A DNA stretch of 64,000 bases from Escherichia coli (GTDB lineage: Bacteria > Pseudomonadota > Gammaproteobacteria > Enterobacterales > Enterobacteriaceae), in the NCBI RefSeq assembly GCF_003991155.1, contig NZ_CP031293.1. The stretch is one strand, 5' to 3'. This document shows positions 1,336 to 62,546 of the stretch, one piece after another (positions within the stretch are counted from its first letter, which is position 1; the number at the start of each line of letters is the position of its first letter). The notes beneath the pieces are model-generated. The model did no database searches, was not told the DNA's origin, and was given only the letters and a program-made list of their open reading frames with translations. The position numbers and the translations under genes are program-made.

Positions 1336-1346
1336 TGGCTATTCCC

Positions 1347-2570: not shown

Positions 2571-2585
2571 CTCATTAAACCTGGG

Positions 2586-2918
2586 TTACTGGCTGACTTT
2601 AATATCCTGTAATAAAGAAAGGTTGCCCTGCTGGACAAAATTAAACGCCACTTTGTCGCCAGTTTTAATTTCGCTCATTTTCGTCTGCGGGGTGATGGTA
2701 AAGCGCATGGTCATCTCCGGCCAGTTCACGGCAGCAATCGGAGCGTGATGGATGGTGATTTTTTTGCTTTCCAGATCAATACCTTTTACCACGCCAGTGG
2801 CGCTAATAACCTGTGGTTGTGCTTCGCTCATGGTTTCATGATGATGTTCGTTAGCCTGGGCATTAAAGCCAATAACGGTAAACAGACTGAACATTGCGAC
2901 TTGCAGTGCTTTTCTCAT
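2586..2918 (-). CDS. cusF: CusF periplasmic copper chaperone
   Basis: ORF from internal Met MRKALQVAMFSLFTVIGFNAQANEHHHETMSEAQ...; ~110 aa; between cusC and cusB. Confidence 0.9.
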   Translation of the reverse strand: MRKALQVAMFSLFTVIGFNAQANEHHHETMSEAQPQVISATGVVKGIDLESKKITIHHAPIAAVNWPEMTMRFTITPQTKMSEIKTGDKVAFNFVQQGNLSLLQDIKVSQ

Positions 2919-2941
2919 ATATTCTCTCCTGGAGTTAAAAA

Positions 2942-4324: not shown

Positions 4325-4393
4325 AGGCTCATAATTTCTGGTGATTTTATGCCGCCAACTTTACTCGCCAGGCTCTGATTTTCCGGTGACAGG

Positions 4394-4415
4394 AAAATGA
4401 CAAAATTGTCATTTT
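4394..4415. promoter_or_regulatory. CusR box palindrome in the cusC-cusR divergent intergenic region
   Basis: Palindrome AAAATGACAAAATTGTCATTTT between the divergent cusC and cusR starts. Confidence 0.75.
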
Positions 4416-4480
4416 GCCAATAAGCGATTGCCATCTGATCCCGCTACTCTAGAATTGCCCGGGCAACATGCGGAGGAAAT

Positions 4481-5164
4481 ATGAAACTGTTGATTGTCGA
4501 AGATGAAAAGAAAACCGGAGAATACTTGACCAAAGGGTTAACCGAAGCCGGTTTTGTGGTCGATTTGGCCGACAACGGGCTGAATGGCTACCATCTGGCG
4601 ATGACCGGTGATTATGATCTGATAATCCTCGATATTATGCTGCCGGACGTGAACGGCTGGGATATCGTGCGCATGTTGCGTTCCGCCAATAAGGGGATGC
4701 CGATTCTGTTGCTTACCGCGCTTGGCACCATTGAACATCGCGTCAAGGGGCTGGAGTTGGGGGCCGATGACTATCTGGTGAAGCCGTTCGCTTTTGCTGA
4801 ACTGCTGGCGCGGGTGCGCACTCTCCTGCGGCGCGGGGCGGCGGTGATTATCGAAAGTCAGTTTCAGGTTGCCGATCTGATGGTCGATCTCGTCAGCCGC
4901 AAAGTCACCCGCAGCGGCACGCGCATCACTCTGACCAGTAAAGAATTTACTCTGCTGGAGTTTTTCCTTCGCCATCAGGGCGAAGTGCTGCCCCGCTCGC
5001 TTATCGCCTCGCAGGTATGGGACATGAATTTCGACAGCGACACTAACGCCATTGATGTGGCGGTGAAGCGGCTACGCGGCAAAATCGACAACGACTTTGA
5101 GCCGAAGCTGATTCAAACCGTGCGCGGCGTGGGTTACATGCTTGAGGTACCGGATGGCCAGTAA
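4481..5164 (+). CDS. cusR: CusR OmpR-family response regulator
   Basis: 227-aa [19 protein letters not shown]...; receiver plus winged-helix domains. Confidence 0.95.
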
Positions 5165-6596
5165 GCCATTTCAGCGCCCGTTTTCGCTGGCAACCCGCCT
5201 GACCTTTTTTATCAGCCTGGCCACCATCGCGGCGTTTTTCGCCTTTGCATGGATCATGATCCACTCAGTAAAAGTGCATTTTGCCGAGCAGGATATTAAT
5301 GATTTAAAAGAGATTAGCGCCACCCTTGAACGGGTACTAAATCACCCTGACGAAACGCAAGCCCGACGCTTAATGACGCTGGAAGATATTGTCAGTGGTT
5401 ATTCCAACGTGTTGATTTCCCTGGCAGATAGCCACGGCAAAACGGTGTATCACTCCCCCGGTGCGCCTGATATCCGCGAGTTTGCACGTGATGCCATACC
5501 CGATAAAGACGCTCGGAGCGGCGAGGTGTATCTCCTTTCCGGCCCGACAATGATGATGCCAGGCCACGGTCACGGGCATATGGAACACAGCAACTGGCGG
5601 ATGATTAACTTGCCGGTTGGCCCGTTGGTGGACGGCAAACCGATTTATACGCTCTACATCGCGCTTTCGATCGATTTTCATCTTCATTACATAAATGATT
5701 TGATGAATAAACTTATTATGACCGCATCGATCATCAGCATCCTGATCGTCTTTATCGTGCTGCTGGCGGTACATAAAGGCCACGCGCCAATTCGCAGCGT
5801 CAGCCGTCAAATCCAGAACATTACCTCGAAAGATCTCGACGTTCGCCTCGATCCACAGACCGTGCCCATTGAACTCGAACAACTGGTGCTGTCGTTCAAC
5901 CATATGATCGAGCGTATCGAGGATGTCTTTACCCGCCAGTCCAATTTCTCAGCGGATATCGCTCACGAAATTCGCACGCCGATTACGAATCTCATAACGC
6001 AAACGGAAATCGCCCTCAGCCAGTCGCGCAGTCAGAAGGAGCTGGAAGATGTGCTCTACTCTAATCTCGAAGAGCTGACTCGAATGGCGAAAATGGTCAG
6101 CGATATGTTGTTTCTCGCCCAGGCCGATAACAACCAGTTAATCCCCGAAAAGAAAATGCTCAACCTGGCGGATGAAGTCGGCAAAGTGTTCGATTTTTTC
6201 GAGGCGTTAGCGGAAGATCGCGGCGTGGAGTTGCGGTTTGTTGGTGACGAGTGTCAGGTTGCGGGCGATCCGCTGATGTTGCGTCGGGCGTTAAGCAACC
6301 TGCTTTCGAACGCCCTGCGTTATACGCCACCCGGAGAGGCAATTGTTGTGCGCTGCCAGACGGTCGATCACCAGGTGCAAGTTTCCGTCGAAAACCCCGG
6401 TACGCCCATTGCGCCCGAACACTTACCGCGATTGTTTGACCGTTTCTACCGCGTTGATCCTTCCCGCCAGCGAAAAGGCGAAGGTAGCGGCATTGGGCTG
6501 GCGATAGTGAAATCAATTGTTGTCGCGCATAAAGGCACGGTTGCAGTAACTTCAGATGCGCGCGGAACAAGGTTTGTTATCATATTACCCGCTTAA
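5154..6596 (+). CDS. cusS: CusS copper-sensing histidine kinase
   Basis: Start [16 protein letters not shown] overlaps the cusR stop; H-box HEIRTPIT; HATPase C-terminus. Confidence 0.9.
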
Positions 6597-6745
6597 TCCT
6601 TCAGCAAACGGCAACTTTTATAACCAGTGTAAAAATAACGTGCCGCAATAATCCTACCTATTAATGATAAAAAGCTGTCACAATTCATAAAAAACTTTAA
6701 TATACGCCACCCTAAACATAACCAGCGTTAATGTAAGGTTTTTGT

Positions 6746-8983
6746 GTGGACTGGCTTCTTGATGTTTTTGCTACCTGGCTCTACGGCTTAAAAGTAATCG
6801 CGATAACGTTAGCGGTCATCATGTTCATCAGCGGGCTGGACGATTTTTTTATTGATGTCGTCTACTGGGTACGCCGCATTAAACGCAAGTTGAGTGTTTA
6901 TCGCCGCTACCCGCGAATGAGTTACCGCGAACTGTATAAACCAGATGAAAAACCGTTAGCGATTATGGTTCCGGCGTGGAATGAAACGGGCGTCATCGGC
7001 AATATGGCCGAGCTGGCGGCGACCACGCTCGACTACGAAAACTATCATATCTTTGTTGGCACCTACCCCAACGACCCCGATACTCAGCGTGATGTTGACG
7101 AAGTGTGCGCTCGCTTCCCGAACGTGCATAAGGTAGTCTGCGCGCGTCCTGGCCCCACCAGCAAAGCCGACTGTCTGAACAACGTGCTGGACGCCATCAC
7201 CCAATTTGAACGTAGCGCCAATTTCGCTTTTGCTGGTTTTATTCTGCATGACGCCGAAGATGTGATTTCACCGATGGAATTGCGTCTGTTCAACTATCTG
7301 GTCGAGCGTAAAGATCTGATTCAGATCCCAGTGTATCCGTTCGAACGCGAATGGACGCACTTCACCAGCATGACTTACATTGATGAGTTTTCAGAACTGC
7401 ATGGCAAAGATGTTCCGGTGCGTGAAGCCCTCGCCGGACAAGTGCCCAGCGCAGGCGTCGGCACCTGTTTCAGCCGCCGCGCCGTGACCGCTCTGTTAGC
7501 TGACGGTGACGGTATTGCTTTCGACGTGCAGAGTCTGACTGAAGATTACGATATTGGCTTCCGCCTGAAAGAAAAAGGTATGACGGAAATTTTTGTCCGT
7601 TTTCCGGTGGTGGACGAAGCCAAAGAACGCGAGCAGCGTAAATTTTTACAGCACGCGCGGACGTCAAACATGATCTGCGTGCGCGAATATTTCCCCGATA
7701 CCTTTTCGACGGCGGTTCGACAAAAATCTCGCTGGATCATCGGCATTGTTTTCCAGGGCTTTAAAACCCATAAATGGACCTCCAGCCTGACGCTGAACTA
7801 CTTTCTCTGGCGCGACCGCAAAGGGGCAATCAGTAACTTTGTCAGCTTCCTCGCGATGCTGGTGATGATCCAGCTTTTGCTGTTACTGGCGTATGAAAGT
7901 TTGTGGCCCGATGCCTGGCATTTCCTTTCTATTTTCAGCGGCAGCGCATGGTTAATGACCCTGCTGTGGCTAAACTTTGGTTTGATGGTTAACCGCATCG
8001 TGCAGCGGGTGATTTTTGTCACTGGCTACTACGGTCTGACGCAGGGGCTGCTATCTGTCCTGCGTCTTTTCTGGGGCAACCTGATTAACTTCATGGCCAA
8101 CTGGCGCGCGTTAAAACAGGTACTTCAACACGGCGATCCACGTCGCGTCGCGTGGGATAAAACAACGCATGACTTCCCCAGCGTGACTGGCGATACCCGC
8201 TCGTTGCGCCCGTTAGGCCAAATTCTGCTGGAAAATCAGGTCATCACTGAAGAACAACTCGATACAGCACTGCGTAATCGCGTCGAAGGTCTACGCCTGG
8301 GCGGTTCAATGCTGATGCAGGGGCTGATTAGCGCCGAACAGCTGGCACAGGCGCTGGCAGAGCAAAACGGCGTGGCGTGGGAGTCGATCGACGCCTGGCA
8401 GATCCCTTCATCACTGATTGCCGAAATGCCGGCTTCCGTGGCGCTGCATTATGCAGTACTGCCGCTGCGTCTGGAAAATGATGAGTTAATTGTCGGCAGT
8501 GAAGATGGTATTGACCCGGTTTCGCTGGCAGCCCTGACGCGTAAAGTCGGACGCAAAGTGCGTTACGTCATTGTTCTGCGGGGACAAATTGTCACCGGAT
8601 TACGCCACTGGTATGCACGCCGACGCGGTCACGATCCGCGGGCAATGTTGTACAATGCAGTTCAGCATCAGTGGCTCACGGAACAGCAGGCCGGTGAAAT
8701 CTGGCGGCAATATGTGCCGCATCAGTTCCTGTTCGCCGAAATACTGACCACGCTCGGTCATATTAATCGTTCAGCAATTAACGTGTTGTTATTGCGCCAT
8801 GAACGCAGTTCTCTGCCGCTCGGCAAGTTTTTGGTCACCGAAGGCGTTATCAGCCAGGAAACGTTGGATCGCGTCCTGACAATTCAACGCGAATTACAAG
8901 TTTCGATGCAATCACTATTACTCAAAGCAGGTTTAAACACAGAAAAGGTTGCGCAACTGGAGTCCGAAAATGAAGGAGAATAA
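6746..8983 (+). CDS. nfrB: NfrB inner-membrane glycosyltransferase-like protein (phage N4 adsorption protein B)
   Basis: 745-aa ORF, GTG start, MDWLLDVFATWLYGLKVIA...; synteny with nfrA. Confidence 0.9.
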   Translation: MDWLLDVFATWLYGLKVIAITLAVIMFISGLDDFFIDVVYWVRRIKRKLSVYRRYPRMSYRELYKPDEKPLAIMVPAWNETGVIGNMAELAATTLDYENYHIFVGTYPNDPDTQRDVDEVCARFPNVHKVVCARPGPTSKADCLNNVLDAITQFERSANFAFAGFILHDAEDVISPMELRLFNYLVERKDLIQIPVYPFEREWTHFTSMTYIDEFSELHGKDVPVREALAGQVPSAGVGTCFSRRAVTALLADGDGIAFDVQSLTEDYDIGFRLKEKGMTEIFVRFPVVDEAKEREQRKFLQHARTSNMICVREYFPDTFSTAVRQKSRWIIGIVFQGFKTHKWTSSLTLNYFLWRDRKGAISNFVSFLAMLVMIQLLLLLAYESLWPDAWHFLSIFSGSAWLMTLLWLNFGLMVNRIVQRVIFVTGYYGLTQGLLSVLRLFWGNLINFMANWRALKQVLQHGDPRRVAWDKTTHDFPSVTGDTRSLRPLGQILLENQVITEEQLDTALRNRVEGLRLGGSMLMQGLISAEQLAQALAEQNGVAWESIDAWQIPSSLIAEMPASVALHYAVLPLRLENDELIVGSEDGIDPVSLAALTRKVGRKVRYVIVLRGQIVTGLRHWYARRRGHDPRAMLYNAVQHQWLTEQQAGEIWRQYVPHQFLFAEILTTLGHINRSAINVLLLRHERSSLPLGKFLVTEGVISQETLDRVLTIQRELQVSMQSLLLKAGLNTEKVAQLESENEGE

Positions 8984-11942
8984 CCTTAATCGCGTCATCG
9001 GATGGTCTGGTTTACTGCTGACGTCTTTATTGAGTACCAGCGCACTCGCAGACAATATCGGCACCAGCGCAGAAGAGCTGGGGCTGAGCGATTATCGCCA
9101 TTTCGTTATTTATCCCCGTCTCGACAAGGCGCTGAAGGCACAGAAAAATAACGACGAAGCAACCGCCATCCGCGAATTTGAATATATACACCAACAGGTG
9201 CCGGATAATATTCCACTAACTTTATACCTTGCGGAAGCCTATCGCCATTTTGGTCATGATGACCGGGCGCGGCTGTTGCTTGAGGATCAACTGAAACGTC
9301 ACCCAGGAGATGCCCGACTTGAGCGCAGTCTGGCGGCTATTCCAGTTGAAGTGAAAAGCGTTACGACTGTTGAAGAACTGCTGGCCCAGCAAAAAGCGTG
9401 CGATGCTGCGCCGACCCTGCGTTGTCGCAGTGAAGTTGGGCAGAATGCCCTGCGGCTGGCACAATTACCTGTCGCCAGAGCGCAACTGAACGATGCGACG
9501 TTTGCTGCATCGCCGGAAGGAAAAACGCTGCGAACCGATCTGCTGCAACGGGCAATCTACCTGAAACAATGGTCCCAGGCAGATACGCTATACAATGAAG
9601 CACGCCAGCAGAACACATTAAGCGCGGCAGAACGCCGCCAGTGGTTTGATGTGCTTCTTGCCGGGCAGCTGGACGATCGGATCCTGGCGCTGCAATCACA
9701 GGGGATCTTCACCGATCCTCAGTCATATATTACTTACGCGACCGCGCTGGCTTATCGTGGCGAAAAAGCACGCCTCCAGCGTTATCTCATTGAAAATAAG
9801 CCGCTGTTTACCACGGACGCACAAGAGAAAAGTTGGCTCTATCTGATATCTAAATACAGCGCCAACCCCGTTCAGGCGTTGGCGAATTATACGGTACAGT
9901 TTGCCGATAACCGCCAGTATGTTGTTGGCGCGACGCTACCGGTGCTGTTAAAAGAAGGTCAGTACGACGCAGCGCAAAAACTGCTCGCCACCCTCCCCGC
10001 CAATGAAATGCTTGAGGAGCGTTATACCGTTAGCGTAGCGACCCATAACAAGGCTGAAGCTCTGCGTCTGGCACGATTGCTGTATCAGCAAGAACCGGCA
10101 AATCTTACCCGCCTGGATCAACTGACCTGGCAACTGATGCAGAACGAGCAGTCACGCGAAGCTGCCGATTTATTGCTGCAACGCTATCCTTTCCAGGGCG
10201 ATGCGCGTGTCAGCCAGACGTTAATGGCGCGACTGGCGTCTCTGCTGGAAAGTCATCCTTACCTGGCAACGCCGGCGAAGGTGGCGATTTTATCGAAACC
10301 CTTACCGCTGGCGGAGCAACGTCAGTGGCAAAGTCAGTTGCCGGGTATTGCAGATAATTGCCCGGCTATAGTTCGCTTGCTGGGCGATATGTCGCCTTCC
10401 TACGATGCCGCCGCCTGGAACCGTCTGGCAAAGTGTTATCGGGACACGCTACCCGGTGTGGCGTTGTATGCATGGCTTCAGGCCGAACAACGACAACCGA
10501 ACGCCTGGCAACATCGTGCGGTAGCCTATCAGGCGTATCAGGTTGAGGACTACGCCACCGCACTGGCGGCCTGGCAGAAAATCAGTCTTCACGACATGAG
10601 CAATGAGGATCTGCTTGCTGCTGCCAATACCGCCCAGGCGGCAGGAAATGGTGCGGCTCGCGATCGCTGGCTTCAGCAGGCAGAACAACGTGGGCTGGGA
10701 AACAATGCCCTCTACTGGTGGCTGCATGCGCAACGTTACATTCCTGGTCAGCCGGAACTCGCACTGAACGATCTCACGCGCTCAATCAATATTGCGCCTT
10801 CTGCCAACGCTTACGTTGCGCGGGCGACAATTTATCGCCAACGTCATAATGTCCCGGCGGCGGTGAGTGATTTGCGCGCCGCGCTGGAACTGGAACCGAA
10901 TAATAGCAACACCCAGGCAGCGCTCGGTTACGCCTTGTGGGATAGCGGTGATATCGCACAGTCGCGGGAAATGCTCGAACAGGCGCATAAAGGGCTACCG
11001 GACGATCCGGCACTTATCCGACAACTGGCCTACGTGAACCAGCGTCTGGATGACATGCCTGCGACGCAGCACTACGCCCGGCTGGTGATTGATGACATTG
11101 ATAATCAGGCGCTGATAACCCCACTGACCCCAGAGCAAAATCAGCAACGCTTCAATTTCCGCCGTCTGCATGAGGAGGTCGGTCGCCGCTGGACGTTCAG
11201 TTTCGATTCTTCTATCGGCTTGCGTTCCGGCGCAATGAGTACCGCTAACAATAATGTCGGCGGCGCAGCGCCAGGGAAAAGCTATCGTAGCTACGGGCAA
11301 CTGGAAGCCGAGTACCGCATCGGACGCAATATGCTGCTGGAAGGCGACCTGCTCTCGGTTTACAGCCGTGTATTTGCCGATACCGGTGAAAACGGGGTGA
11401 TGATGCCGGTGAAAAATCCGATGTCCGGCACCGGTCTGCGCTGGAAGCCGCTGCGCGATCAGATCTTTTTCCTCGCCGTCGAACAGCAGTTGCCGCTGAA
11501 CGGCCAAAATGGCGCATCCGATACCATGCTGCGCGCCAGCGCCTCATTCTTTAATGGCGGCAAATACAGCGACGAATGGCACCCGAACGGTTCAGGCTGG
11601 TTTGCCCAAAACCTGTACCTCGATGCGGCGCAATATGTCCGCCAGGATATTCAGGCGTGGACGGCAGATTATCGCGTCAGCTGGCATCAGAAGGTGGCTA
11701 ACGGACAGACTATTGAGCCTTACGCTCACGTTCAGGACAACGGCTATCGTGATAAAGGCACTCAGGGCGCGCAGCTTGGCGGAGTCGGGGTCCGCTGGAA
11801 TATCTGGACCGGCGAGACGCACTACGACGCCTGGCCGCACAAAGTCAGTCTCGGCGTCGAGTATCAACATACCTTTAAGGCGATTAATCAACGTAACGGA
11901 GAGCGCAACAACGCGTTTCTCACCATTGGAGTGCACTGGTAA
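8970..11942 (+). CDS. nfrA: NfrA outer-membrane protein (phage N4 receptor)
   Basis: Start MKENNLNRVIGWSGLLLTSLLSTSALA (signal peptide); ~990 aa; TPR-like N-terminus. Confidence 0.9.
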   Translation: MKENNLNRVIGWSGLLLTSLLSTSALADNIGTSAEELGLSDYRHFVIYPRLDKALKAQKNNDEATAIREFEYIHQQVPDNIPLTLYLAEAYRHFGHDDRARLLLEDQLKRHPGDARLERSLAAIPVEVKSVTTVEELLAQQKACDAAPTLRCRSEVGQNALRLAQLPVARAQLNDATFAASPEGKTLRTDLLQRAIYLKQWSQADTLYNEARQQNTLSAAERRQWFDVLLAGQLDDRILALQSQGIFTDPQSYITYATALAYRGEKARLQRYLIENKPLFTTDAQEKSWLYLISKYSANPVQALANYTVQFADNRQYVVGATLPVLLKEGQYDAAQKLLATLPANEMLEERYTVSVATHNKAEALRLARLLYQQEPANLTRLDQLTWQLMQNEQSREAADLLLQRYPFQGDARVSQTLMARLASLLESHPYLATPAKVAILSKPLPLAEQRQWQSQLPGIADNCPAIVRLLGDMSPSYDAAAWNRLAKCYRDTLPGVALYAWLQAEQRQPNAWQHRAVAYQAYQVEDYATALAAWQKISLHDMSNEDLLAAANTAQAAGNGAARDRWLQQAEQRGLGNNALYWWLHAQRYIPGQPELALNDLTRSINIAPSANAYVARATIYRQRHNVPAAVSDLRAALELEPNNSNTQAALGYALWDSGDIAQSREMLEQAHKGLPDDPALIRQLAYVNQRLDDMPATQHYARLVIDDIDNQALITPLTPEQNQQRFNFRRLHEEVGRRWTFSFDSSIGLRSGAMSTANNNVGGAAPGKSYRSYGQLEAEYRIGRNMLLEGDLLSVYSRVFADTGENGVMMPVKNPMSGTGLRWKPLRDQIFFLAVEQQLPLNGQNGASDTMLRASASFFNGGKYSDEWHPNGSGWFAQNLYLDAAQYVRQDIQAWTADYRVSWHQKVANGQTIEPYAHVQDNGYRDKGTQGAQLGGVGVRWNIWTGETHYDAWPHKVSLGVEYQHTFKAINQRNGERNNAFLTIGVHW

Positions 11943-12833
11943 ATGCGTAAGTTCATTTTCGTATTGCTGACACTGCTTTTGGTCAGCCCTTTTTCCTTTG
12001 CGATGAAAGGTATTATCTGGCAACCACAAAACCGTGATAGTCAGGTTACCGATACCCAGTGGCAGGGGCTGATGAGTCAGTTACGTTTGCAAGGCTTCGA
12101 TACCCTGGTTTTGCAATGGACTCGTTACGGCGATGCATTCACCCAGCCAGAACAGCGCGCGTTATTGTTTAAGCGTGCCGCAGCTGCGCAACAGGCTGGC
12201 CTGAAGCTGATTGTCGGGCTGAATGCCGATCCGGAATTTTTTATGCACCAGAAACAGTCGTCTGCAGCGCTGGAAAGCTATCTTAACCGCCTGCTGGCTG
12301 CCGATCTCCAGCAAGCCAGATTATGGAGCGCCGTACCTGGCGTAACGCCGGATGGCTGGTACATCAGCGCGGAAATTGACGACCTGAACTGGCGCAGCGA
12401 AGCCGCCCGTCAGCCTTTGCTAACATGGTTAAACAACGCGCAGCGGTTGATTAGCGATGTTTCAGCAAAACCGGTTTATATCAGTAGTTTTTTCGCCGGA
12501 AACATGTCGCCCGATGGCTATCGCCAACTGCTGGAACACGTTAAAGCAACCGGCGTTAATGTCTGGGTACAGGATGGCAGCGGCGTGGATAAACTGACCG
12601 CTGAACAGCGTGAACGTTATCTACAGGCCAGCGCCGATTGCCAAAGCTCCGCCCCAGCAAGCGGCATTGTTTATGAACTGTTTGTCGCCGGCAAAGGCAA
12701 AACCTTTACAGCGAAACCGAAACCGGACGCAGAAATTGCCTCGCTGTTAGCGAAACGTTCCTCTTGCGGTAAAGACACGCTCTATTTCTCTCTGCGCTAT
12801 TTGCCCGTCGCGCACGGCATTCTCGAGTATTAA
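11943..12833 (+). CDS. ybcH: YbcH family protein (DUF4434-like)
   Basis: 296-aa ORF MRKFIFVLLTLLLVSPFSFA...; ATG abuts the nfrA stop. Confidence 0.85.
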   Translation: MRKFIFVLLTLLLVSPFSFAMKGIIWQPQNRDSQVTDTQWQGLMSQLRLQGFDTLVLQWTRYGDAFTQPEQRALLFKRAAAAQQAGLKLIVGLNADPEFFMHQKQSSAALESYLNRLLAADLQQARLWSAVPGVTPDGWYISAEIDDLNWRSEAARQPLLTWLNNAQRLISDVSAKPVYISSFFAGNMSPDGYRQLLEHVKATGVNVWVQDGSGVDKLTAEQRERYLQASADCQSSAPASGIVYELFVAGKGKTFTAKPKPDAEIASLLAKRSSCGKDTLYFSLRYLPVAHGILEY

Positions 12834-13015
12834 ATCTCCTCCAGGTAAGTCGGGTACGACCTGGCTTACCTCTTTCGCTCTCGTCAGAATTCCATCAAGA
12901 TTAATTGCTAAAAAGCGTGCTAAAGAAAGAAGATCGTTATCGGCGAACGGGCCGATCACTCATGCAGGAAGCATAGATCCTTTGAGCGGAGTTTCTGATA
13001 TCTGAGGAGTGCGAA

Positions 13016-13777
13016 ATGCAATTGAGCAGCAGTGAACCTTGCGTGGTGATCCTGACCGAAAAAGAGGTAGAGGTAAGCGTCAATAACCATGCTACGTTTA
13101 CCCTTCCGAAAAACTACCTGGCCGCCTTCGCGTGCAACAATAACGTCATTGAACTCTCAACGTTAAATCACGTATTAATCACCCACATCAACCGTAACAT
13201 CATCAACGATTATCTGTTGTTTTTAAATAAGAACTTAACCTGTATAAAGCCCTGGTCGCGGCTGGCAACCCCGGTTATCGCTTGTCATAGCCGTACACCG
13301 GAAGTGTTCCGGCTAGCCGCCAACCACAGCAAGCAGCAACCCAGCAAACCCTGCGAAGCGGAGTTGACGCGCGCATTGCTTTTTACCGTATTGTCTAACT
13401 TTCTTGAGCAATCGCGGTTTATTGCCCTACTGATGTATATCTTACGCAGCAGCGTCCGCGACAGCGTCTGCCGCATTATTCAAAGCGATATTCAGCATTA
13501 CTGGAATCTGCGAATTGTCGCCAGTTCGCTATGTTTAAGCCCCAGCCTGCTCAAAAAGAAATTAAAAAACGAAAATACCAGCTATAGCCAGATTGTCACA
13601 GAGTGTCGTATGCGTTACGCCGTACAGATGTTATTGATGGATAACAAAAATATCACTCAGGTAGCGCAATTATGTGGCTATAGCAGCACGTCGTACTTTA
13701 TCTCTGTTTTTAAGGCGTTTTACGGCCTGACACCGTTGAATTATCTCGCCAAACAGCGACAAAAAGTGATGTGGTGA
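13016..13777 (+). CDS. envY: EnvY AraC-family transcriptional regulator
   Basis: 253-aa ORF with C-terminal AraC HTH (…VAQLCGYSSTSYFISVFKAFYGLTP). Confidence 0.85.
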   Translation: MQLSSSEPCVVILTEKEVEVSVNNHATFTLPKNYLAAFACNNNVIELSTLNHVLITHINRNIINDYLLFLNKNLTCIKPWSRLATPVIACHSRTPEVFRLAANHSKQQPSKPCEAELTRALLFTVLSNFLEQSRFIALLMYILRSSVRDSVCRIIQSDIQHYWNLRIVASSLCLSPSLLKKKLKNENTSYSQIVTECRMRYAVQMLLMDNKNITQVAQLCGYSSTSYFISVFKAFYGLTPLNYLAKQRQKVMW

Positions 13778-13822
13778 AGGGCAAAGCGGAAACGGATAAG
13801 ACGGGGATAAATGAAGAAGAAA

Positions 13823-13867
13823 TGGCGCGCCCTGCAGGATTCGAACCTGCGGCCCACGACTTAGAAG
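13823..13867. repeat. attR core: 45-bp duplicate of the argU 3' end
   Basis: TGGCGCGCCCTGCAGGATTCGAACCTGCGGCCCACGACTTAGAAG matches 62547-62591; sequence diverges after 13867. Confidence 0.9.
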
Positions 13868-14289
13868 TTCCTAGAACGACATTTTAAGTCAACAACTTAC
13901 CGCGCCATCTCTGCGCTCACACGTCCCACTACCTCAAAACATGTAAAGCCTTGCAAGCCATTGTGAGGCCTTATGTGTCTCAGTTTTGTCCCTCTTTTTT
14001 GTACCAAAAAACATAGCAATTGAGGATAAACCTCATGCTATTTTCGCTTATATGCCTCTAAAGGCATGGCGCTTAAATAGATAAAAACACCACAAAAGCA
14101 TAAAAAACCACACAGTAAAACCGCAACATAAAACAATAACAGATAATTAAACCAAAAACAGATAGCGCATTGTGATAATCATTCAATACTAAACAAAATA
14201 TAAACAGTGGAGCAATATGTAATTGACTCATTAAGTTAGATATAAAAAATACATATTCAATCATTAAAACGATTGAATGGAGAACTTTT

Positions 14290-15243
14290 ATGCGGGCGAA
14301 ACTTCTGGGAATAGTCCTGACAACCCCTATTGCGATCAGCTCTTTTGCTTCTACCGAGACTATATCGTTTACTCCTGACAACATAAATGCGGGCATTAGT
14401 CTTGGAACTCTGAGCGGAAAAACAAAAGAGCGCGTTTATCTAGCTGAAGAAGGAGGCCGAAAAGTCAGTCAACTCGACTGGAAATTCAATAACGCTGCAA
14501 TTATTAAAGGTGCAATTAATTGGGATTTGATGCCCCAGATATCTATTGGGGCTGCGGGCTGGACTACTCTCGGCAGCCGAGGTGGCAATATGGTCGATCA
14601 GGACTGGATGGATTCCAGTAACCCCGGAACCTGGACAGATGAAAGTAGGCACCCTGATACACAACTCAATTATGCCAACGAATTTGATCTGAATATCAAA
14701 GGCTGGCTCCTCAACGAACCCAATTACCGCCTGGGACTCATGGCCGGATATCAGGAAAGCCGTTATAGCTTTACAGCCAGAGGTGGTTCCTATATCTACA
14801 GTTCTGAGGAGGGATTCAGAGATGATATCGGCTCCTTCCCGAATGGAGAAAGAGCAATCGGCTACAAACAACGTTTTAAAATGCCCTACATTGGCTTGAC
14901 TGGAAGTTATCGTTATGAAGATTTTGAGCTAGGTGGCACATTTAAATACAGCGGCTGGGTGGAAGCATCTGATAACGATGAGCACTATGACCCAGGAAAA
15001 AGAATCACTTATCGCAGTAAAGTCAAAGACCAAAATTACTATTCTGTTGCAGTCAATGCAGGTTATTACGTAACACCTAACGCAAAAGTTTATGTTGAAG
15101 GCGCATGGAATCGGGTTACGAATAAAAAAGGTAATACTTCACTTTATGATCACAATGATAACACTTCAGACTACAGCAAAAATGGTGCAGGCATAGAAAA
15201 CTATAACTTCATCACTACTGCTGGTCTTAAGTACACCTTTTAA
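14290..15243 (+). CDS. ompT: OmpT outer-membrane protease (omptin)
   Basis: 317-aa ORF MRAKLLGIVLTTPIAISSFASTETISFTPDNIN... Confidence 0.95.
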   Translation: MRAKLLGIVLTTPIAISSFASTETISFTPDNINAGISLGTLSGKTKERVYLAEEGGRKVSQLDWKFNNAAIIKGAINWDLMPQISIGAAGWTTLGSRGGNMVDQDWMDSSNPGTWTDESRHPDTQLNYANEFDLNIKGWLLNEPNYRLGLMAGYQESRYSFTARGGSYIYSSEEGFRDDIGSFPNGERAIGYKQRFKMPYIGLTGSYRYEDFELGGTFKYSGWVEASDNDEHYDPGKRITYRSKVKDQNYYSVAVNAGYYVTPNAKVYVEGAWNRVTNKKGNTSLYDHNDNTSDYSKNGAGIENYNFITTAGLKYTF

Positions 15244-15429
15244 CGAAGTTAACCAGATTTTCTCCCCGGTGGTATTGTATAACCCCGGGGAATTTGTTTA
15301 CAGTTACAAGTAGACAATATCCACTAATTTTGTAAGCATTTAACCTATGTCATAACGTGTAATCTCTTACCGCAACACAAGACCTCAATATATTCAAATC
15401 TTATCTTTATTCCGATATTCAGAGACACA

Positions 15430-16914
15430 ATGCGAAAAATAATTACTCATTTCAAAGTTGTTTTAACGTTACTTCTACCAGTAACCGTATCTGCCCAGCA
15501 GATACAGTGGCAATCCTGTATGGCCAGTCAATTCAACCACTGGTTTGGTGAGGAAAAACCGTCTCCTGACTTACTATGTGGTTATTTGTCTGTTCCATTA
15601 AAATATACAGACACAGGCGGAGATGCTTCTTATGAAAAAAAATCACAAGTCAAACTAGCGTTGACAAAATTGCCGGCAAAAAGCAAGCATAAAGGAAGTA
15701 TCCTGATAATAAGTGGTGGTCCCGGGTTACCAGGCATAAATCCTTATATTAACTTTGACTGGCCAGTCACAAATCTTCGTGAGTCATGGGATATTATTGG
15801 ATTTGATCCTCGAGGCGTCGGACAGTCCACTCCGACAATAAACTGCCGGCAATCAGATACAGAGACTCAGGAAAACATAACCGAAAAGCAACAAGTATTA
15901 AATAAAATTAATGCCTGTATCCATAATACCGGAGCCGAAGTCATTCGCCATATCGGCTCTAACGAGGCTGTATACGATATTGATCGTATTAGGCAAGCCT
16001 TGGGGGATAAACAACTGACAGCCGTGGCGTATTCGTATGGAACTCAAATTGCAGCCTTATATGCAGAACGTTTTCCCTACAACGTAAGATCTATCGTTCT
16101 TGATGGAGTCGTCGATATCGATGACCTGGAGGACAACTTCACATGGCAACTCAAACAGGCACAGAGTTATCAGGAAACGTTTGATCGCTTTGCATCCTGG
16201 TGTGCGCGTACAAAAAGTTGCCCGCTTTCTTCAGACAGAGATAAGGCAATAACTCAGTTCCATGAGCTATTATCAAAATTACATCACAAACCTTTATTAG
16301 ACAGTAAGGGAGAAAATATATCTTCAGATGAACTCATATCATTAACAACAGACCTTCTGCTATGGCGTTCATCATGGCCAACCCTTGCAACTGCCATACG
16401 CCAGTTCTCTCAGGGGATTGTCAGTAATGAAATTGAAACTGCGCTCAGTGCTCCGATAGCCTCAGAAGAGTCAAGCGATGCTTCGGGGGTAATCCTCTGT
16501 GTAGATCAGGGGGATGAGCAATTAACACCAGAAGAGCGAAAATCCCGAAAAGACGCTCTTGCGAATGCCTTCCCGGCTATTAACTTTGACAATGGACGTT
16601 CCGATTCACCTGATTTTTGTGAATTATGGCCAATACATAGCGACCTGAACAAAACTCGCCTGAAAAATACTGTTCTGCCCTCTGGTTTACTGTTTGTAGC
16701 ACACAAATACGACCCAACAACGCCCTGGATTAATGCCCGTAAGATGGCAGAGAAATTTTCCAGCCCGTTACTAACAATAAATGGTGATGGGCATACATTA
16801 GCTCTCACCGGAGTTAATTTATGTGTAGATAAAGCAGTTGTACATCACCTGATCACTCCACAAAAAATAGAAAATATATACTGCCCAGGAAATTCTGAAG
16901 CAGAAATACAATAA
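15430..16914 (+). CDS. Secreted alpha/beta-hydrolase, S33 (tripeptidyl aminopeptidase-like) family
   Basis: 494-aa ORF with signal peptide MRKIITHFKVVLTLLLPVTVSA; nucleophile elbow AYSYGTQ (GxSxG). Confidence 0.7.
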   Translation: MRKIITHFKVVLTLLLPVTVSAQQIQWQSCMASQFNHWFGEEKPSPDLLCGYLSVPLKYTDTGGDASYEKKSQVKLALTKLPAKSKHKGSILIISGGPGLPGINPYINFDWPVTNLRESWDIIGFDPRGVGQSTPTINCRQSDTETQENITEKQQVLNKINACIHNTGAEVIRHIGSNEAVYDIDRIRQALGDKQLTAVAYSYGTQIAALYAERFPYNVRSIVLDGVVDIDDLEDNFTWQLKQAQSYQETFDRFASWCARTKSCPLSSDRDKAITQFHELLSKLHHKPLLDSKGENISSDELISLTTDLLLWRSSWPTLATAIRQFSQGIVSNEIETALSAPIASEESSDASGVILCVDQGDEQLTPEERKSRKDALANAFPAINFDNGRSDSPDFCELWPIHSDLNKTRLKNTVLPSGLLFVAHKYDPTTPWINARKMAEKFSSPLLTINGDGHTLALTGVNLCVDKAVVHHLITPQKIENIYCPGNSEAEIQ

Positions 16915-16926
16915 TTTCAAAATATT

Positions 16927-16976
16927 CCGCTATTTGCTCCCAATGCAAAACATATATTGCATTGGGAGCATATTCA
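16927..16976 (+). terminator. Rho-independent terminator after the hydrolase gene
   Basis: Inverted repeat GCTCCCAATGCAA...TTGCATTGGGAGC followed by a T-rich tract. Confidence 0.5.
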
Positions 16977-17180
16977 TATTTTTGTTATTCTTGTATGAAA
17001 TCGTCTCATGTACACGGTCCTTTTTTCGCCGAAAACTGATATTACTTTAATCAAAAGTTGACGTGCCAGATTCGAAGTAAATTTATAAAATATCAAATCA
17101 ATATACATTTTGCACCTTCGAGATAGTAATTGCTGTTACTGTAACATGAGTTACAAACAGCTTCATACCCAGAGCTACTG

Positions 17181-17400
17181 ATGTATCAACACGATTCAAC
17201 AATACCCGATATTTATTCCATGCCTCCAGCAACGATCTTTCTTCCTCCGTTGCGATTTCCCAGCATCCTGCAGTGGCGCAATATACTCACTGAATTCCTG
17301 GATGTAGAACTGTGTGGTGACGGTCTTCCAGCCATTCGGCTCCTGCTGTATCGAAGCATACCAGGCTATTTCAATATCGCTATGCTGCGGCAGCATTTAA
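17181..17400 (-). pseudogene. tfa: Tail fibre assembly (Tfa) 3' remnant, frameshifted
   Basis: Minus-strand frames read ...EYIAPLQDA and [27 protein letters not shown] in different frames; no N-terminus. Confidence 0.65.
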
Positions 17401-17452: not shown

Positions 17453-18121
17453 ATGGTGAAATTAATGAAAAAAAACACAGATGATGGGGCTAAAATTTAC
17501 ACACCACTTACCCTAAAGCTTTATGACTGGTGGGTTTTGGGAGTATCAAATCGGCTTGCATGGGGATGTCCTACAAAGGAACACCTTCTTCCACACTTTC
17601 TGGAACATTTAGGTAACAACCATCTGGATATTGGTGTTGGAACTGGGTTTTACCTTACTCACGTACCTGAGAGCAGTCTGATATCTTTAATGGATTTGAA
17701 CGAAGCTAGCCTGAACGCGGCATCTACAAGGGCTGGGGAATCAAAAATTAAACATAAAATTAGCCATGATGTTTTTGAACCTTATCCCGCGGCGTTACAT
17801 GGTCAATTTGATTCCATTTCCATGTTTTACCTTCTTCACTGCCTGCCTGGAAATATATCTACAAAAAGCTGTGTAATACGCAATGCGGCGCAGGCCTTAA
17901 CTGACGATGGAACTCTATACGGAGCCACAATTCTTGGCGATGGAGTTGTGCACAATAGCTTCGGTCAAAAACTGATGCGCATTTACAATCAGAAAGGCAT
18001 CTTTTCAAACACAAAAGATTCCGAAGAAGGCTTAACACATATACTCTCAGAGCATTTCGAGAATGTTAAAACCAAGGTTCAAGGTACTGTAGTAATGTTT
18101 TCCGCTTCAGGGAAAAAATAG
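17453..18121 (+). CDS. ybcY: Class I SAM-dependent methyltransferase (YbcY-like)
   Basis: 222-aa ORF with motif I LDIGVGTGFY; sits between tfa remnants as ybcY does in DLP12. Confidence 0.7.
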   Translation: MVKLMKKNTDDGAKIYTPLTLKLYDWWVLGVSNRLAWGCPTKEHLLPHFLEHLGNNHLDIGVGTGFYLTHVPESSLISLMDLNEASLNAASTRAGESKIKHKISHDVFEPYPAALHGQFDSISMFYLLHCLPGNISTKSCVIRNAAQALTDDGTLYGATILGDGVVHNSFGQKLMRIYNQKGIFSNTKDSEEGLTHILSEHFENVKTKVQGTVVMFSASGKK

Positions 18122-19331: not shown

Positions 19332-19613
19332 TCACATCCAGCCACGAAGTTGATGCTCAACAACAACCGCGTATTTATCGAATATTGACGATTTTTTTGC
19401 ATCATTAATGATGCGCACGTTTACAAAATATCCATCTTCCTTAACACATACCGGTTCGCCATCTTCAGTCAGCTCTCCGGTTTCTTTGTACACGTTACCT
19501 ATCACGTCAATAAGAATATCATCCTGCATCGACTCGTCATCATAATAACCAGCACTCTCCATAAAGGTCGAAAAGTCGGCCCTGTCGGCAAATTTGAGTG
19601 TTAAATCTTTCAT
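19332..19613 (-). CDS. Hypothetical small phage protein
   Basis: 93-aa ORF directly downstream of stf with overlapping stop/start. Confidence 0.4.
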   Translation of the reverse strand: MKDLTLKFADRADFSTFMESAGYYDDESMQDDILIDVIGNVYKETGELTEDGEPVCVKEDGYFVNVRIINDAKKSSIFDKYAVVVEHQLRGWM

Positions 19614-21991
19614 TAGATTGACTCCCCCACCTGAGCATCAGTCAATGCCTTGTGCCATATTCTGAAATTCCTGACATGACCAAATAAATGACGTAACCCG
19701 GCTGTAGTCTGGCCTCCAATACGGATAATTGCGGTGTTCTGAATATAGGACCATGTGGTTTTTGTTTCGCTGGATATACGCCCGTTACTTACTGAGCACG
19801 TAGACTGATCTGACTTTACACGCATCCCCATAACCATTTTTTCAAGCAATGCGTTTTCGTTTACCCGTCTGTTAGCTCCTCCAATATCGCAATAAGGAAA
19901 TCCGTCGTAATCTGTTGAATGACCGAAGCCAAGAATAATAGCCGCTCCGGTTTGATGACCGCCGGTATCAAAAACACGCGGTGCTGCATTTGGCGTTTTA
20001 TACCAGTTCTTATGTACCTCACAAAGAACCGTAAAAGGAAGATTATAAAGGTTATTCTTGATTGGGACTGTCACCATATCGCTTGCGCGGGTCGCTGCCG
20101 TCGTTTCTGATATAATAAAAGATGATGCGCAAGGGCCATTTTCAACCTGAGGGGTGGACAGGAAAATATAATCTCCCGATTCAACGACACCACCTTCTTT
20201 TGGTGCGTATTGTATTGCCGAGGTTATGCAGGACTCGTCAATTGCCTGAATCGTTGCCTCTGCAAAAATCCAGCCCGTAACCTCATCCTTGTTAACTCGA
20301 GCAGTGAGCCTGTCGGCAGCTACACCGGTGATTTCAACCGATAAAGACCGCGTATTAACAATGGCATATCCAAGATTAGATGAAGCGCTGCCATCGAAGG
20401 CTTCAAACCTGATCCTTAACCGGAGTTCCAAATCCGTTTTAAATCTGCACGATGTCGTCACACACTTATTATCGCCTGATACATCGACAGCCCCGGTTAC
20501 TGTAACTGACGCCATGTTAACAGGAGAGGTTTTCCCAATCAGAGAATCGTTACAGACAAATTTTCCATAAGTAAAACCAAAACTATCCGTCCCGGTTTCG
20601 GGCACATCCATATTTACCGACTTGCCCCAACTGGCAGGGGTTTCCGAATTGAGCATGTAGTTCGTTCTCTGACCCTCAATAAGCAGGCCATCACGTTCAA
20701 ATCGTGGCTCGTCAATGGCAGCCTCTGTCAGCACACCAGATTTATTAATATAGGTTGCTTTCGATGCGCGTTTAAACTTTACAACCTTATCGCCAGGCAT
20801 CGTTATTTCATCATCACCAATAACAATCTTTTTATATGATGGCGAAAACCCCGTAATCATATCCAGTGAATCGTTAAACGGTATCCACACATCAGGCAGT
20901 GGCTGTAAGACATATTTATACGGCTCTGCTGCCTGACTTGCATACTCTCTGGCTGCGTCTTCACTTGCTTTTGCAGCGGTCTGGCTTGCAGCGGATGCTT
21001 TCGCCGAGTTCGCCGCTGCAGTCTCGCTTGTCTTTGCATTGGTTTCACTGGTTTTTGCTGCTTTTTGACTGTTGGCTGATGCAGTGGCAGAAGCAGCCGC
21101 CGCACTTGCAGAACCAGCTGCGGCACTCTCGCTTTGGGCTGCTGCATCCTGACTGTTTTTCGCCGCAGTTTCGCTGGCTTTAGCATTCGTTTCGCTGGTC
21201 TTCGCTGCCGTCTGGCTGGACTTTGCGTTGGTTTCGCTCGTCTTCGCTGCTTTCTGACTGTTAGCCGCAGCAGTTGCTGATCCAGCTGCTGAAGTCGCAG
21301 AACCGGCTGCTGCGCTCTCGCTTTCAGCTGCTGCAGCCTGGCTGTTTTTCGCCGCAGTTTCACTGGCTTTAGCATTCGTTTCGCTGGTCTTCGCTGCCGT
21401 CTGGCTTGACTTTGCGTTGGTTTCGCTCGTCTTTGCTGCTGTCTCGCTATTTTTCGCGTTGGTTTCTGATTTTTTGGCTGCTGTCGCGGAATTTGCCGAT
21501 GCAGTCTGTGAGGTCGCTGCCGCCTGTGCGCTGTTAGCTGCATTCGTTTCTGAGGTTTTCGCCGCGTTCTTCGATGATGCCGCTGCAGTTTCGGATTTCT
21601 TTGCCGCCGCTGCGCTCTGAGAGGCGGCTTCGGCGTTGCGTGCCACTTCTTCCACCATTGCCTCAAAACGACGCAATGCCTCCGGCATGACATCATCTTC
21701 CGTCATGGCACCGAGAAAATCATTCAGCGTACCTGGTCTGGAGCCTTCATAGACGGTAATGGTCCCAGCATGTGAAGGCGGAAAACCTTCAACCAGCAGG
21801 GTGACGCTGTACTGGCCATACTCAACATCCATGCTGTAACGTCCGGCTTCATCCGGATTTTCAGAAGCCACCGTGTTCACCAGTACCGTGGTGCTGTTAC
21901 GCTTTGCCTTCAGTTGAATAGTGCAGTTCTGTATTGGTTTTCCCGCACCATCTTTCAGCACACCTGAGATTTTTACTGCTGCCATATCCAC
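19613..21991 (-). CDS. stf: Side tail fibre protein Stf: lambda/Rac-type N-terminus, Ser/Thr/Ala repeat array, divergent C-terminal domain
   Basis: 792-aa ORF ...AAVKISGVLKDGAGKPIQNCTIQLKAKRNSTTV...; repeated KTSETNAKxSxTAAK units. Confidence 0.85.
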   Translation of the reverse strand: MDMAAVKISGVLKDGAGKPIQNCTIQLKAKRNSTTVLVNTVASENPDEAGRYSMDVEYGQYSVTLLVEGFPPSHAGTITVYEGSRPGTLNDFLGAMTEDDVMPEALRRFEAMVEEVARNAEAASQSAAAAKKSETAAASSKNAAKTSETNAANSAQAAATSQTASANSATAAKKSETNAKNSETAAKTSETNAKSSQTAAKTSETNAKASETAAKNSQAAAAESESAAAGSATSAAGSATAAANSQKAAKTSETNAKSSQTAAKTSETNAKASETAAKNSQDAAAQSESAAAGSASAAAASATASANSQKAAKTSETNAKTSETAAANSAKASAASQTAAKASEDAAREYASQAAEPYKYVLQPLPDVWIPFNDSLDMITGFSPSYKKIVIGDDEITMPGDKVVKFKRASKATYINKSGVLTEAAIDEPRFERDGLLIEGQRTNYMLNSETPASWGKSVNMDVPETGTDSFGFTYGKFVCNDSLIGKTSPVNMASVTVTGAVDVSGDNKCVTTSCRFKTDLELRLRIRFEAFDGSASSNLGYAIVNTRSLSVEITGVAADRLTARVNKDEVTGWIFAEATIQAIDESCITSAIQYAPKEGGVVESGDYIFLSTPQVENGPCASSFIISETTAATRASDMVTVPIKNNLYNLPFTVLCEVHKNWYKTPNAAPRVFDTGGHQTGAAIILGFGHSTDYDGFPYCDIGGANRRVNENALLEKMVMGMRVKSDQSTCSVSNGRISSETKTTWSYIQNTAIIRIGGQTTAGLRHLFGHVRNFRIWHKALTDAQVGESI

Positions 21992-32716: not shown

Positions 32717-32723
32717 ATCGTCC

Positions 32724-33119
32724 TCACATTTCATAGGTAATGACATAAGTCAGATCGGCTGAACTCCACAGGCCCGCATCATCGTCGCGCCGGTAGTCAT
32801 AGCCACTGGCCACCATACTGGTGATCAAATCTGACAGTGCCGGGATATCGCTCATCACCGGATAAATCCGGGACTCCATCCACGAATCCAGCTCTGAATC
32901 CGGCACCTGAGCAGGCAGGAAAACTTCAATATGCAGCTCCGCCTGCCAGGTATCGCTGTCCAGCTCTTCGCCCGTGTATTCAGCGCCGGTGAGATAAACG
33001 GCAATTGCCGGAAAATCTTCCTCATCAAAAACAGCAGGGCGACCATCAAAAAGCGTCGCCCCGGTGTCATGCTTCTCCAGTGCATCCAGTACGGCTGCAC
33101 GGAGTTCAGTATGTTTCAT
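32724..33119 (-). CDS. U: Tail terminator protein U
   Basis: 131-aa [27 protein letters not shown]... Confidence 0.9.
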
Positions 33120-33694: not shown

Positions 33695-33705
33695 ACATCC
33701 CCCTT

Positions 33706-34059: not shown

Positions 34060-34070
34060 AGCGCCTCCCG

Positions 34071-34469: not shown

Positions 34470-34510
34470 GAACTCCTCCACAGAGAGAAAATGGCCCCGA
34501 AGGGCCATGA

Positions 34511-62531: not shown

Positions 62532-62546
62532 CTGATTGAATTGTAA

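Follow-up and report, generated by a model that had tools for sequence, protein, structure and literature searches.

A Hip1-like alpha/beta hydrolase encoded behind ompT in an Escherichia coli prophage as putative exported cargo

Hip1 (Rv2224c, CaeA) of Mycobacterium tuberculosis is a cell-envelope serine protease that cuts GroEL2 and dampens macrophage activation. This serine protease also hydrolyses esters, contains 11 cysteines with five predicted disulfides, and is 30–38% identical to the Streptomyces tripeptidyl peptidases (TPP A to C), peptidases that are named as its relatives (PMC4022732). Its oxyanion hole is formed by Gly110 and Tyr229 (PMC13041806). The subject of this work is a gene of related sequence that lies behind the omptin gene ompT in a stretch of 64,000 nucleotides from the Escherichia coli contig NZ_CP031293.1, denoted here as the window, in whose orientation both genes are on the plus strand. 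By sequence and predicted fold, its product is a member of the TAP/Hip1 branch (TAP, for tripeptidyl aminopeptidase) of MEROPS family S33 (clan SC). The initial annotation of this gene, referred to below as the hydrolase gene, had described a 494-residue protein with a signal peptide, the nucleophile elbow AYSYGT and a terminator of its own, all of which could be located:

15430 to 16914, plus strand: coding sequence of the hydrolase, a predicted Hip1/TAP-family alpha/beta hydrolase (ECs1662 in O157:H7 Sakai; WP_001226375-type)
15430 to 15495, plus strand: predicted signal peptide, residues 1–22, read from the sequence, with the cleavage predicted between VSA and QQ
15715 to 15726, plus strand: GGPG motif, residues 96–99, of the predicted oxyanion-hole loop, in which Gly97 corresponds to Hip1 Gly110
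16033 to 16035, plus strand: codon of the predicted nucleophile Ser202 (AYSYGT, residues 200–205), equivalent to Hip1 Ser228
16711 to 16713, plus strand: codon of Asp428 (YDPTTP), equivalent to Hip1 Asp463
16792 to 16794, plus strand: codon of His455 (GDGHT), equivalent to Hip1 His490
16935 to 16970, plus strand: intrinsic terminator of the hydrolase gene, a 14-bp stem followed by a T-run, 21 nt past the stop codon

The open reading frame (ORF) extends from an ATG at 15430 to a TAA at 16912–16914. Pfam recognizes Abhydrolase_1 (PF00561, E = 5e-33) over residues 91–460 and the TAP-like C-terminal domain Abhydrolase_4 (PF08386, E = 6.1e-14) over residues 386–479. The ratio of nonsynonymous to synonymous substitution rates (dN/dS) between alleles of the gene is 0.11–0.16, indicating purifying selection, and this value together with the Pfam matches shows that it is not a chance ORF. 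When the protein was compared by phmmer with the sequences in the PDB, the top matches were four deposited forms of M. tuberculosis Hip1 (E = 3.5e-51 to 7e-50), with residues 21–475 of the hydrolase aligning with residues 5–468 of the Hip1 chain, that is, over the full length; TnmK1 (4e-18) and TnmK2 followed as far weaker matches, and prolyl aminopeptidases were marginal. An AlphaFold model, built from an alignment of 84 sequences (predicted local distance difference test score 91.6, predicted template modelling score 0.91), combines an alpha/beta core and a large lid of helices, which are spread across residues 230–380 between core strands. In a Foldseek search of the PDB with this model, six Hip1 entries ranked first (E = 2e-33 to 2e-30, template modelling (TM) score 0.76–0.84, with 0.80–0.84 for the best of them), ahead of TnmK1/TnmK2 and then of prolyl aminopeptidases (TM below 0.6). 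Neighbors in the AFDB50 set are automatically labelled as tripeptidyl aminopeptidase, putative protease, TAP domain protein or "Serine protease Hip1". The initial assignment to the S33-type alpha/beta hydrolases was thus borne out by Pfam, PDB sequence and fold searches alike, and led to the TAP/Hip1 branch.

The likeness to Hip1 includes the catalytic center. The motifs pair as AYS202YGT with GYS228YGT, YD428PTTP with HD463PATP and GDGH455T with GTQH490T, so that the mapping of the catalytic triad envisaged at the outset yielded a complete Ser202/Asp428/His455 set. Conservation was evaluated in two collections, one of 20 homologues (down to 34% identity) and one of 84 (down to 28%). In the former, the three residues, the GGPG motif and eight cysteines are invariant; in the latter, Asp428 and G97-P98-G99 are again invariant, G96 is nearly so, conservation of Ser202 and His455 reaches at least 90%, and each of the eight cysteines is invariant or conserved to that level. 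The hydrolase has ten cysteines in all, eight invariant and two nearly so, and nine of the ten align with cysteines of Hip1. Both proteins share full-length homology, the core plus helical lid, the Ser-Asp-His triad and the GGPG/Tyr type of oxyanion hole, and the equivalent of Hip1 Thr466 is Thr431. They differ in that identity is only about 27–30%, and in that the hydrolase gene is borne by phages and plasmids whereas that of Hip1 belongs to the chromosomal core.

Comparison with the other described relatives gave a graded picture. The Streptomyces lividans enzymes Tap/TPP A, SlpD/TPP B and SlpE/TPP C, also of MEROPS S33, combine Abhydrolase_1 with the TAP-like domain, as the hydrolase does; PF08386 takes its name from the Streptomyces tripeptidyl aminopeptidases, and this likeness is one of Pfam architecture rather than of direct alignment, while some of the AlphaFold Database (AFDB) neighbors are labelled tripeptidyl peptidase B, MEROPS S33. 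Prolyl aminopeptidase, or proline iminopeptidase (S33.001), shares the clan and a GGPG-type oxyanion loop, but its fold matches at a TM of only 0.35–0.57, and the hydrolase, about 180 residues longer and with a large lid, is not a member. This identity was rejected because the NCBIfam model TIGR01249 scored far below its cut-off (35.8 bits versus 259.75), matching residues 167–263 only, and the fold match was poor; some UniProt fragments of the hydrolase are automatically named "proline iminopeptidase". TnmK1 and TnmK2, from tiancimycin biosynthesis, provide the second-best solved folds (TM 0.71–0.83) but differ in their E-values (4e-18 or weaker), their 19–22% identity, their origin in an actinomycete biosynthetic cluster and their non-proteolytic chemistry, and no tiancimycin-type biosynthetic cluster is present at the hydrolase locus.

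The N-terminus, MRKIITHFKVVLTLLLPVTVSA followed by QQ, displays by eye a basic n-region and then a hydrophobic core, with V-S-A occupying positions -3 to -1, and inspection of this region revealed no lipobox; as judged by eye from the sequence, it reads as a Sec type-I signal peptide. The term "secreted" used in the initial annotation is therefore better worded as "exported by Sec". In this respect too the hydrolase departs from Hip1, which is an exported protein, since its host is Gram-negative and the signal peptide, predicted for export, looks cleavable and has no lipobox. The motif TVSA(Q/R)QI(Q/E)WQSC at the cleavage site is retained in a paralogue encoded by the F plasmid, and W27 and C30, both upstream of an alternative start at Met31, are invariant in 20 of 20 homologues, which identifies the long, 494-residue form as the real product. 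Both the RefSeq call in phage 2G7b (7091–8485 of the retrieved stretch) and the profile of PHROG 20134 begin at Met31 and comprise 464 residues; given the invariance of W27 and C30, these calls are considered N-terminally truncated, with the signal peptide cut off.

The gene was initially placed next to ompT, inside an att-bounded element, and the map of the locus agrees with this:

13821 to 13867, strand not assigned: attR, an exact 47-bp copy of the argU 3' end (pauD-like pseudo-tRNA), marking the prophage's outer boundary at its ompT end
14290 to 15243, plus strand: ompT, omptin outer-membrane protease of 317 residues (NCBIfam NF008222, 705 bits versus a cut-off of 537)
15294 to 17173, plus strand: hydrolase cassette of 1880 bp, allelic to the 1529-bp appY cassette of K-12 (blastn versus K-12)
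17453 to 18121, plus strand: ybcY-like class I S-adenosylmethionine methyltransferase, the next cargo gene; homology to K-12 and B2 restarts around here
61368 to 62531, plus strand: prophage integrase, adjoining attL
62545 to 62623, minus strand: argU, tRNA-Arg(tct), at 62547–62623, with the attL copy of the exact 47-bp repeat at 62545–62591

The 47-bp direct repeat is exact, occurs in the window only in these two copies, and brackets the element, which places both ompT and the hydrolase gene inside the prophage. A sub-threshold Rfam tRNA match (13834–13917) covers the attR pseudo-tRNA. The gene order is cusCRS, nfrBA, ybcH, envY, attR, ompT, hydrolase, remnants of tail-fibre-assembly and dinI genes, the ybcY-like methyltransferase gene, the tail, head and early genes of a lambdoid phage, int and argU. 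ompT lies upstream of the hydrolase gene on the same strand, at a distance of 186 bp, and the guanine-cytosine (GC) content is 42% in the hydrolase gene, 44% in ompT and 50% in the window. The ybcY-like gene is intact here (222 residues; PHROG 2132, of unknown function) and a pseudogene, ybcY, in K-12; it accompanies the ompT–hydrolase pair in the phages examined.

That the hydrolase gene represents lysogenic-conversion cargo, as first suggested, is well supported: its GC content is below that of the window, it has its own terminator, it is present in 11 phage GenBank records, and prophage and phages are closely alike. These records amount to nine distinct phages (2G7b, ev243, Turner, PhiR26_1, PhiR30_1, PhiR49_1 plus its _star variant, PhiR29_1 and PhiR29_2), most of them with a laboratory E. 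coli host on record, in several cases K-12, C or ECOR13, and the window prophage is 95–98% identical to them over 60–88% of its length. In 2G7b and Turner, int is followed by attP, ompT, the hydrolase gene, the tail-fibre-assembly remnant, the methyltransferase gene and the tail fibres, and this slot is the equivalent of the lambda b region. The lambda b-region morons (lom, bor) and the appY cassette of DLP12 resemble the hydrolase gene in slot (from the tail fibres to attP), low GC, a terminator of their own and expression from the lysogen; they encode other classes of protein, whereas the cargo of the present prophage forms a protease module of two genes, found on plasmids as well. In IMG/VR, 19 further E. 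coli viral contigs carry the gene, with an omptin in all those having upstream sequence; one of them has an IS2-like insertion (1–786 of the retrieved stretch) at the equivalent of window position 15349, between ompT and the hydrolase gene. ISEc8 (10924–13236 of the retrieved stretch) lies directly downstream of the cassette in O157:H7, and insertion sequence (IS) elements flank the cassette repeatedly.

The pair recurs at three other prophage and plasmid sites. In O157:H7 Sakai it occupies the right end of prophage Sp8 (ECs_1662, "hydrolase"; ECs_1663, ompT); in a prophage at the ompN/uspF site it lies beside cdtABC; and on ColV-like plasmids it adjoins cvi and iroN. The genes next to cdtABC appear to correspond to rorf1 ("putative protease") and rorf2 ("OmpT-like") of Toth et al. 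(2009), to judge from what PMC4606577 quotes of that work. On IncF plasmids, near RepFIB, a paralogue that is 76% identical and 495–499 residues long follows ompP, whose product is 70% identical to OmpT; in the F plasmid of K-12 (NC_002483), ompP spans 32322–33269 and the paralogue 33374–34861 (495 residues, WP_072145210). This ompP-linked "alpha/beta hydrolase" matches the window gene in order, strand and signal-peptide cleavage motif and differs in being plasmid-borne and in its shorter spacer (92–104 bp versus 186 bp); it is contiguous with ompP in 156 of the 180 plasmids having the allele. The order omptin then hydrolase is retained in more than 1300 replicons. Since order and strand were kept while OmpT and OmpP came to be 70% and the hydrolases 76% identical, omptin and hydrolase diverged together. 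The adjacency initially described as "side by side" stands, but the link is far tighter and older than this wording implied.

A third E. coli allele (78% identity, 527 residues as called) is found on plasmids in a cluster with genes of the Mig-14 family (DUF535), LptD_N, an HlyF-like dehydrogenase, a 3'-phosphoadenosine 5'-phosphosulfate (PAPS) reductase-like protein and PerC (701–7584 of the retrieved stretches), and no omptin is present within 6 kb of it. Beyond E. coli the neighbors of the homologues vary, with examples such as an EprS-like autotransporter, Fic, EptB and transporters. Two IMG/VR prophages from a different host end in a homologue of 42–44% identity, preceded by genes for the J protein, tail fibres and, directly before the homologue, an outer-membrane protein of the Lom family (5128–7410 and 5200–7479 of the retrieved stretches). 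These two homologues are 65% identical to the Serratia chromosomal copy, and their arrangement again places a hydrolase gene behind the gene of an outer-membrane barrel at a prophage end.

A base-level blastn comparison of the window with K-12 confirmed that appY occupies the equivalent position there. K-12 homology stops at window position 15293, inside the 3' hairpin of ompT, and restarts at 17174; the hydrolase and appY cassettes are alternative cassettes in one slot, and no remnant of the hydrolase gene was detected in K-12 by blastn at E <= 1e-5. Among 5426 complete E. coli genomes, the hydrolase cassette occurs, at 80% or more of its length, in 1225 (23%) and the appY cassette in 827. 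The hydrolase ORF is intact in the 1225 genomes (at least 99% identity in 1212 records) and contiguous with ompT in 1220 of them. A widespread core-genome enzyme, the alternative raised at the outset, is not what these figures describe, as the gene is restricted to 23% of the complete genomes and almost invariably resides on a mobile element. The O157:H7 genomes examined are among the carriers, as are strains of serogroups O111, O145 and O103.

Nissle 1917 (B2) displays a third state of the slot. Similarity spans ompT as far as window position 15399 and then jumps to 17370, so that this strain lacks 15400–17369 and retains 156 bp of the ompT–hydrolase spacer (15244–15399), ending about 30 bp before the hydrolase ATG: a clean deletion with the upstream spacer left as a scar (4455–4700 of the retrieved stretch). 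This scar indicates that ompT and the hydrolase gene are ancestral at this site, and that K-12 and B2 strains represent natural losses. The Nissle prophage itself is reduced to ompT, the methyltransferase, the tail-fibre-assembly remnant and a remnant of int. The B2-type context of ompT is exemplified by CFT073 (PMC6854850). In the same work (Desloges et al. 2019), the gene located 186 bp downstream of ompT in isolate "cystitis 6" is named "ymcE, a putative cold shock gene"; with an identical spacing of 186 bp, it is probably the hydrolase gene under a wrong label.

Two elements around ompT bear on the transcription of the pair:

14190 to 14206, minus strand: perfect-consensus PhoP box, TGTTTATATTTTGTTTA, upstream of ompT, the sole site with zero mismatches among the 200 of 202 matches listed in a scan of the 64-kb window
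15263 to 15300, plus strand: 3' hairpin of ompT, 10 bp and GC-rich, followed by UUUGUUU (RNA fold of 15244–15330: -25.8 kcal/mol, z = -3.4)

The PhoP box of ompT is consistent with the published control of omptins by PhoPQ. A weak promoter candidate, TTACCG-N16-TATATT, was picked out by eye at about 15367–15394, and is also present in the plasmid and cdt alleles. Judging from the sequence, the hydrolase gene would be transcribed either by read-through from ompT or from this kind of weak, non-consensus promoter. In arrays of O157:H7 Sakai, ECs1662 changed by a log2 value of -2.53, a 5.8-fold fall, between 4.6 and 5 h, on entry into stationary phase, and ompT by -2.72 between 4.6 and 5.5 h, with both genes in the same expression cluster (PMC2241611). 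This signal implies that the hydrolase gene is transcribed during growth and behaves like ompT.

Taken jointly, these observations are probably best explained by a Sec-exported serine peptidase or esterase that forms lysogenic-conversion cargo, is part of an old omptin–hydrolase module and possibly complements the omptin. The enzyme would be a serine hydrolase stabilized by up to five disulfides, with a Ser202-Asp428-His455 triad and an oxyanion hole made by the GGPG loop and Tyr203. Its gene would be an accessory gene, or "moron", of lambdoid coliphages, located in the non-essential region from the tail-fibre genes to attP, expressed from the lysogen and not used for phage growth; omptin then hydrolase would be an old module of two genes that travel together among prophages and plasmids. 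By analogy with its relatives, the protein may act as a peptidase, either an endopeptidase or an N-terminal tripeptidyl peptidase, with an esterase side-activity like that of Hip1, and would then act on periplasmic or cell-envelope peptides or proteins. More speculatively, it might complement OmpT by finishing off cationic host peptides that OmpT has cut, or by processing envelope or secreted proteins.

Several points weigh against this interpretation. The peptidase function is predicted from homology and a modelled fold, and the fold family also includes named esterases and the non-hydrolytic TnmK1. Hip1 Glu113, which forms a salt bridge to the P2 lysine, is replaced by Leu100, and Arg232, in the S1 pocket, by Gln206; with both residues changed, the Hip1 specificity (P2 Lys, P1 Leu/Gln) cannot be transferred, and, as far as aligned residues can tell, that of the hydrolase must differ from it. 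As for the module, K-12 has ompT with appY instead of the hydrolase gene, so coupling is not obligatory, and B2 strains such as Nissle lost the hydrolase gene and retained ompT. At 79 genome loci outside E. coli, no omptin lies within 8 kb of the homologue; these loci include homologues of 32–53% identity from Budvicia, Yersinia thracica and Serratia as well as from Moraxella and Psychrobacter. None lies within the 6 kb examined around a Salmonella plasmid homologue either, and the homologues of Budvicia, Yersinia, Serratia and Salmonella are also given as 40–55% identical. With regard to transcription, the hairpin and U-tract separate ompT from the hydrolase gene, the 186-bp spacer contains no match to the sigma-70 consensus, and none of the 200 listed PhoP-box matches with three or fewer mismatches falls within it; with a hairpin between the genes and neither type of match in the spacer, co-transcription is only a possibility. 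The expression cluster that ECs1662 and ompT share is large and growth-related, and hence weak evidence for co-regulation.

Because the peptidase assignment comes from relatives, it has to be set against a reading in which the hydrolase is mainly a carboxylesterase, lipase or lactonase that acts on lipids or small esters of the host or the envelope. Alpha/beta hydrolases are promiscuous, Hip1 itself, originally deposited under the name "Carboxylesterase A", cleaves p-nitrophenyl butyrate, the GenBank records of 2G7b and ev243 name the gene "putative lactone hydrolase", and the peptide-binding Glu113 is, as described above, not conserved. On the other side, the S33 peptidase branch has the GGPG loop and a TAP-like domain at the C-terminus as its hallmarks, the close relatives that have been characterized (Hip1 and TPP A to C of Streptomyces) are peptidases, and the closest AFDB clusters carry peptidase labels, albeit from automatic annotation, which makes an esterase identity rather unlikely. 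The tight gene order could instead point to a dedicated partner that processes, activates or restrains OmpT or OmpP, as the order was kept in more than 1300 replicons despite protein divergence to 70–76% identity. Such a role is hard to reconcile with the ompT genes of K-12 and B2 strains that do without the hydrolase, with OmpT activity measured in strains of B2-type context such as CFT073, with arlC-type omptin loci that are not reported with a hydrolase (both in PMC6854850), and with the third allele, which has no omptin at all; we regard it as improbable.

A function in superinfection exclusion, with the enzyme damaging components of incoming phages in the periplasm, seems more improbable still. 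The gene does lie in an accessory region of the phage, a type of location where defence genes are often found, a DS1_1/DS1_2 pair is present in the same prophage, the pair on F lies about 8 kb from a P-loop nucleoside triphosphatase gene and pifC, and PADLOC reports a match to PDLC01094, "C3a206 TAP-like protein" (6.8e-56). But PDLC01094 is a three-member actinobacterial (Nocardiopsis) candidate accessory cluster beside type III-D CRISPR cassettes (PMC6546367), so this match reflects family homology only; moreover, no partner genes of known defence systems are adjacent, no cas or CARF genes lie near the window gene, and the hydrolase gene is retained in decayed prophages beside a host-interaction protease. 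Finally, the gene might be a non-functional passenger that hitch-hikes with ompT, in keeping with its loss from the K-12 and B2 lineages at no evident cost and with the IS insertions beside it. Purifying selection, the intact ORF in all carrier genomes, the invariance of catalytic residues and cysteines in the 20 homologues and the transcription in Sakai render this idea extremely improbable.

If the favored reading of an exported cargo enzyme is extended one step further, omptin and Hip1-like hydrolase might constitute a conserved, mobile two-enzyme module of host interaction, in which the surface endoprotease and the exported S33 peptidase act in sequence on host defence peptides or proteins or, in the way that Hip1 acts on GroEL2, on surface or secreted proteins of the bacterium, and the hydrolase might be an unrecognized fitness or virulence factor of enterohaemorrhagic E. 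coli (EHEC) O157:H7, of other EHEC (O111, O145, O103), of avian pathogenic E. coli and of many commensals. We propose this extension tentatively and consider it doubtful. A homologue of a validated virulence protease of M. tuberculosis, intact, under selection and transcribed, is present in about 23% of complete E. coli genomes, and its near-invariant position behind omptins, across the OmpT/OmpP split, points to a theme of envelope or host-peptide proteolysis. Nothing about the enzyme is mechanistically strange; its interest lies in a potential relevance to virulence, and should it be only a housekeeping-type periplasmic peptidase, it would be ordinary accessory cargo. Omptin research, in which ompT is usually deleted or cloned alone, has not considered the hydrolase, for which K-12 (appY swap) and B2 extraintestinal pathogenic E. 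coli (clean deletion) provide natural "knock-outs". The enzyme family itself is already known and the hydrolase is an additional member. Existing annotations read "alpha/beta hydrolase", "hydrolase" or "putative protease", and PHROGs lists family 20134 as of unknown function; in the literature searched, neither a characterization of the hydrolase, including under Z1930/Z1932, nor a study of the F-plasmid/IncF paralogue was found. The relationship to Hip1 in E. coli and the deep omptin–hydrolase pairing across phages and plasmids, F included, look unreported.

Some further features of the window were recorded. At the right edge of the cassette, overlapping the tail-fibre-assembly and dinI remnants, lies a full-length but sub-threshold Rfam match to IS009 (17177–17373, minus strand; 79.9 bits versus a gathering score of 117, E = 1e-17), and a mir-450 match over the terminator hairpin of the hydrolase gene was dismissed as due to chance. 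The anti-phage pair mentioned above comprises DS1_1, a nucleoid-associated anti-phage protein (44307–45170, plus strand; NCBIfam equivalog, 349 bits versus a cut-off of 330), and the adjoining DS1_2 (45484–46698, plus strand; NCBIfam equivalog, 375 bits versus 315), which form a two-gene anti-phage system within the same prophage as the hydrolase gene. A tail-fibre ORF of 792 residues (19613–21991, minus strand) contains a long repeat rich in Ala, Ser, Thr and Lys (…AAKTSETNAKSSQT…), which produces a strong, local anomaly in AT skew (down to -0.59 at 21000–21500) and a spurious overlapping ORF of 279 residues.

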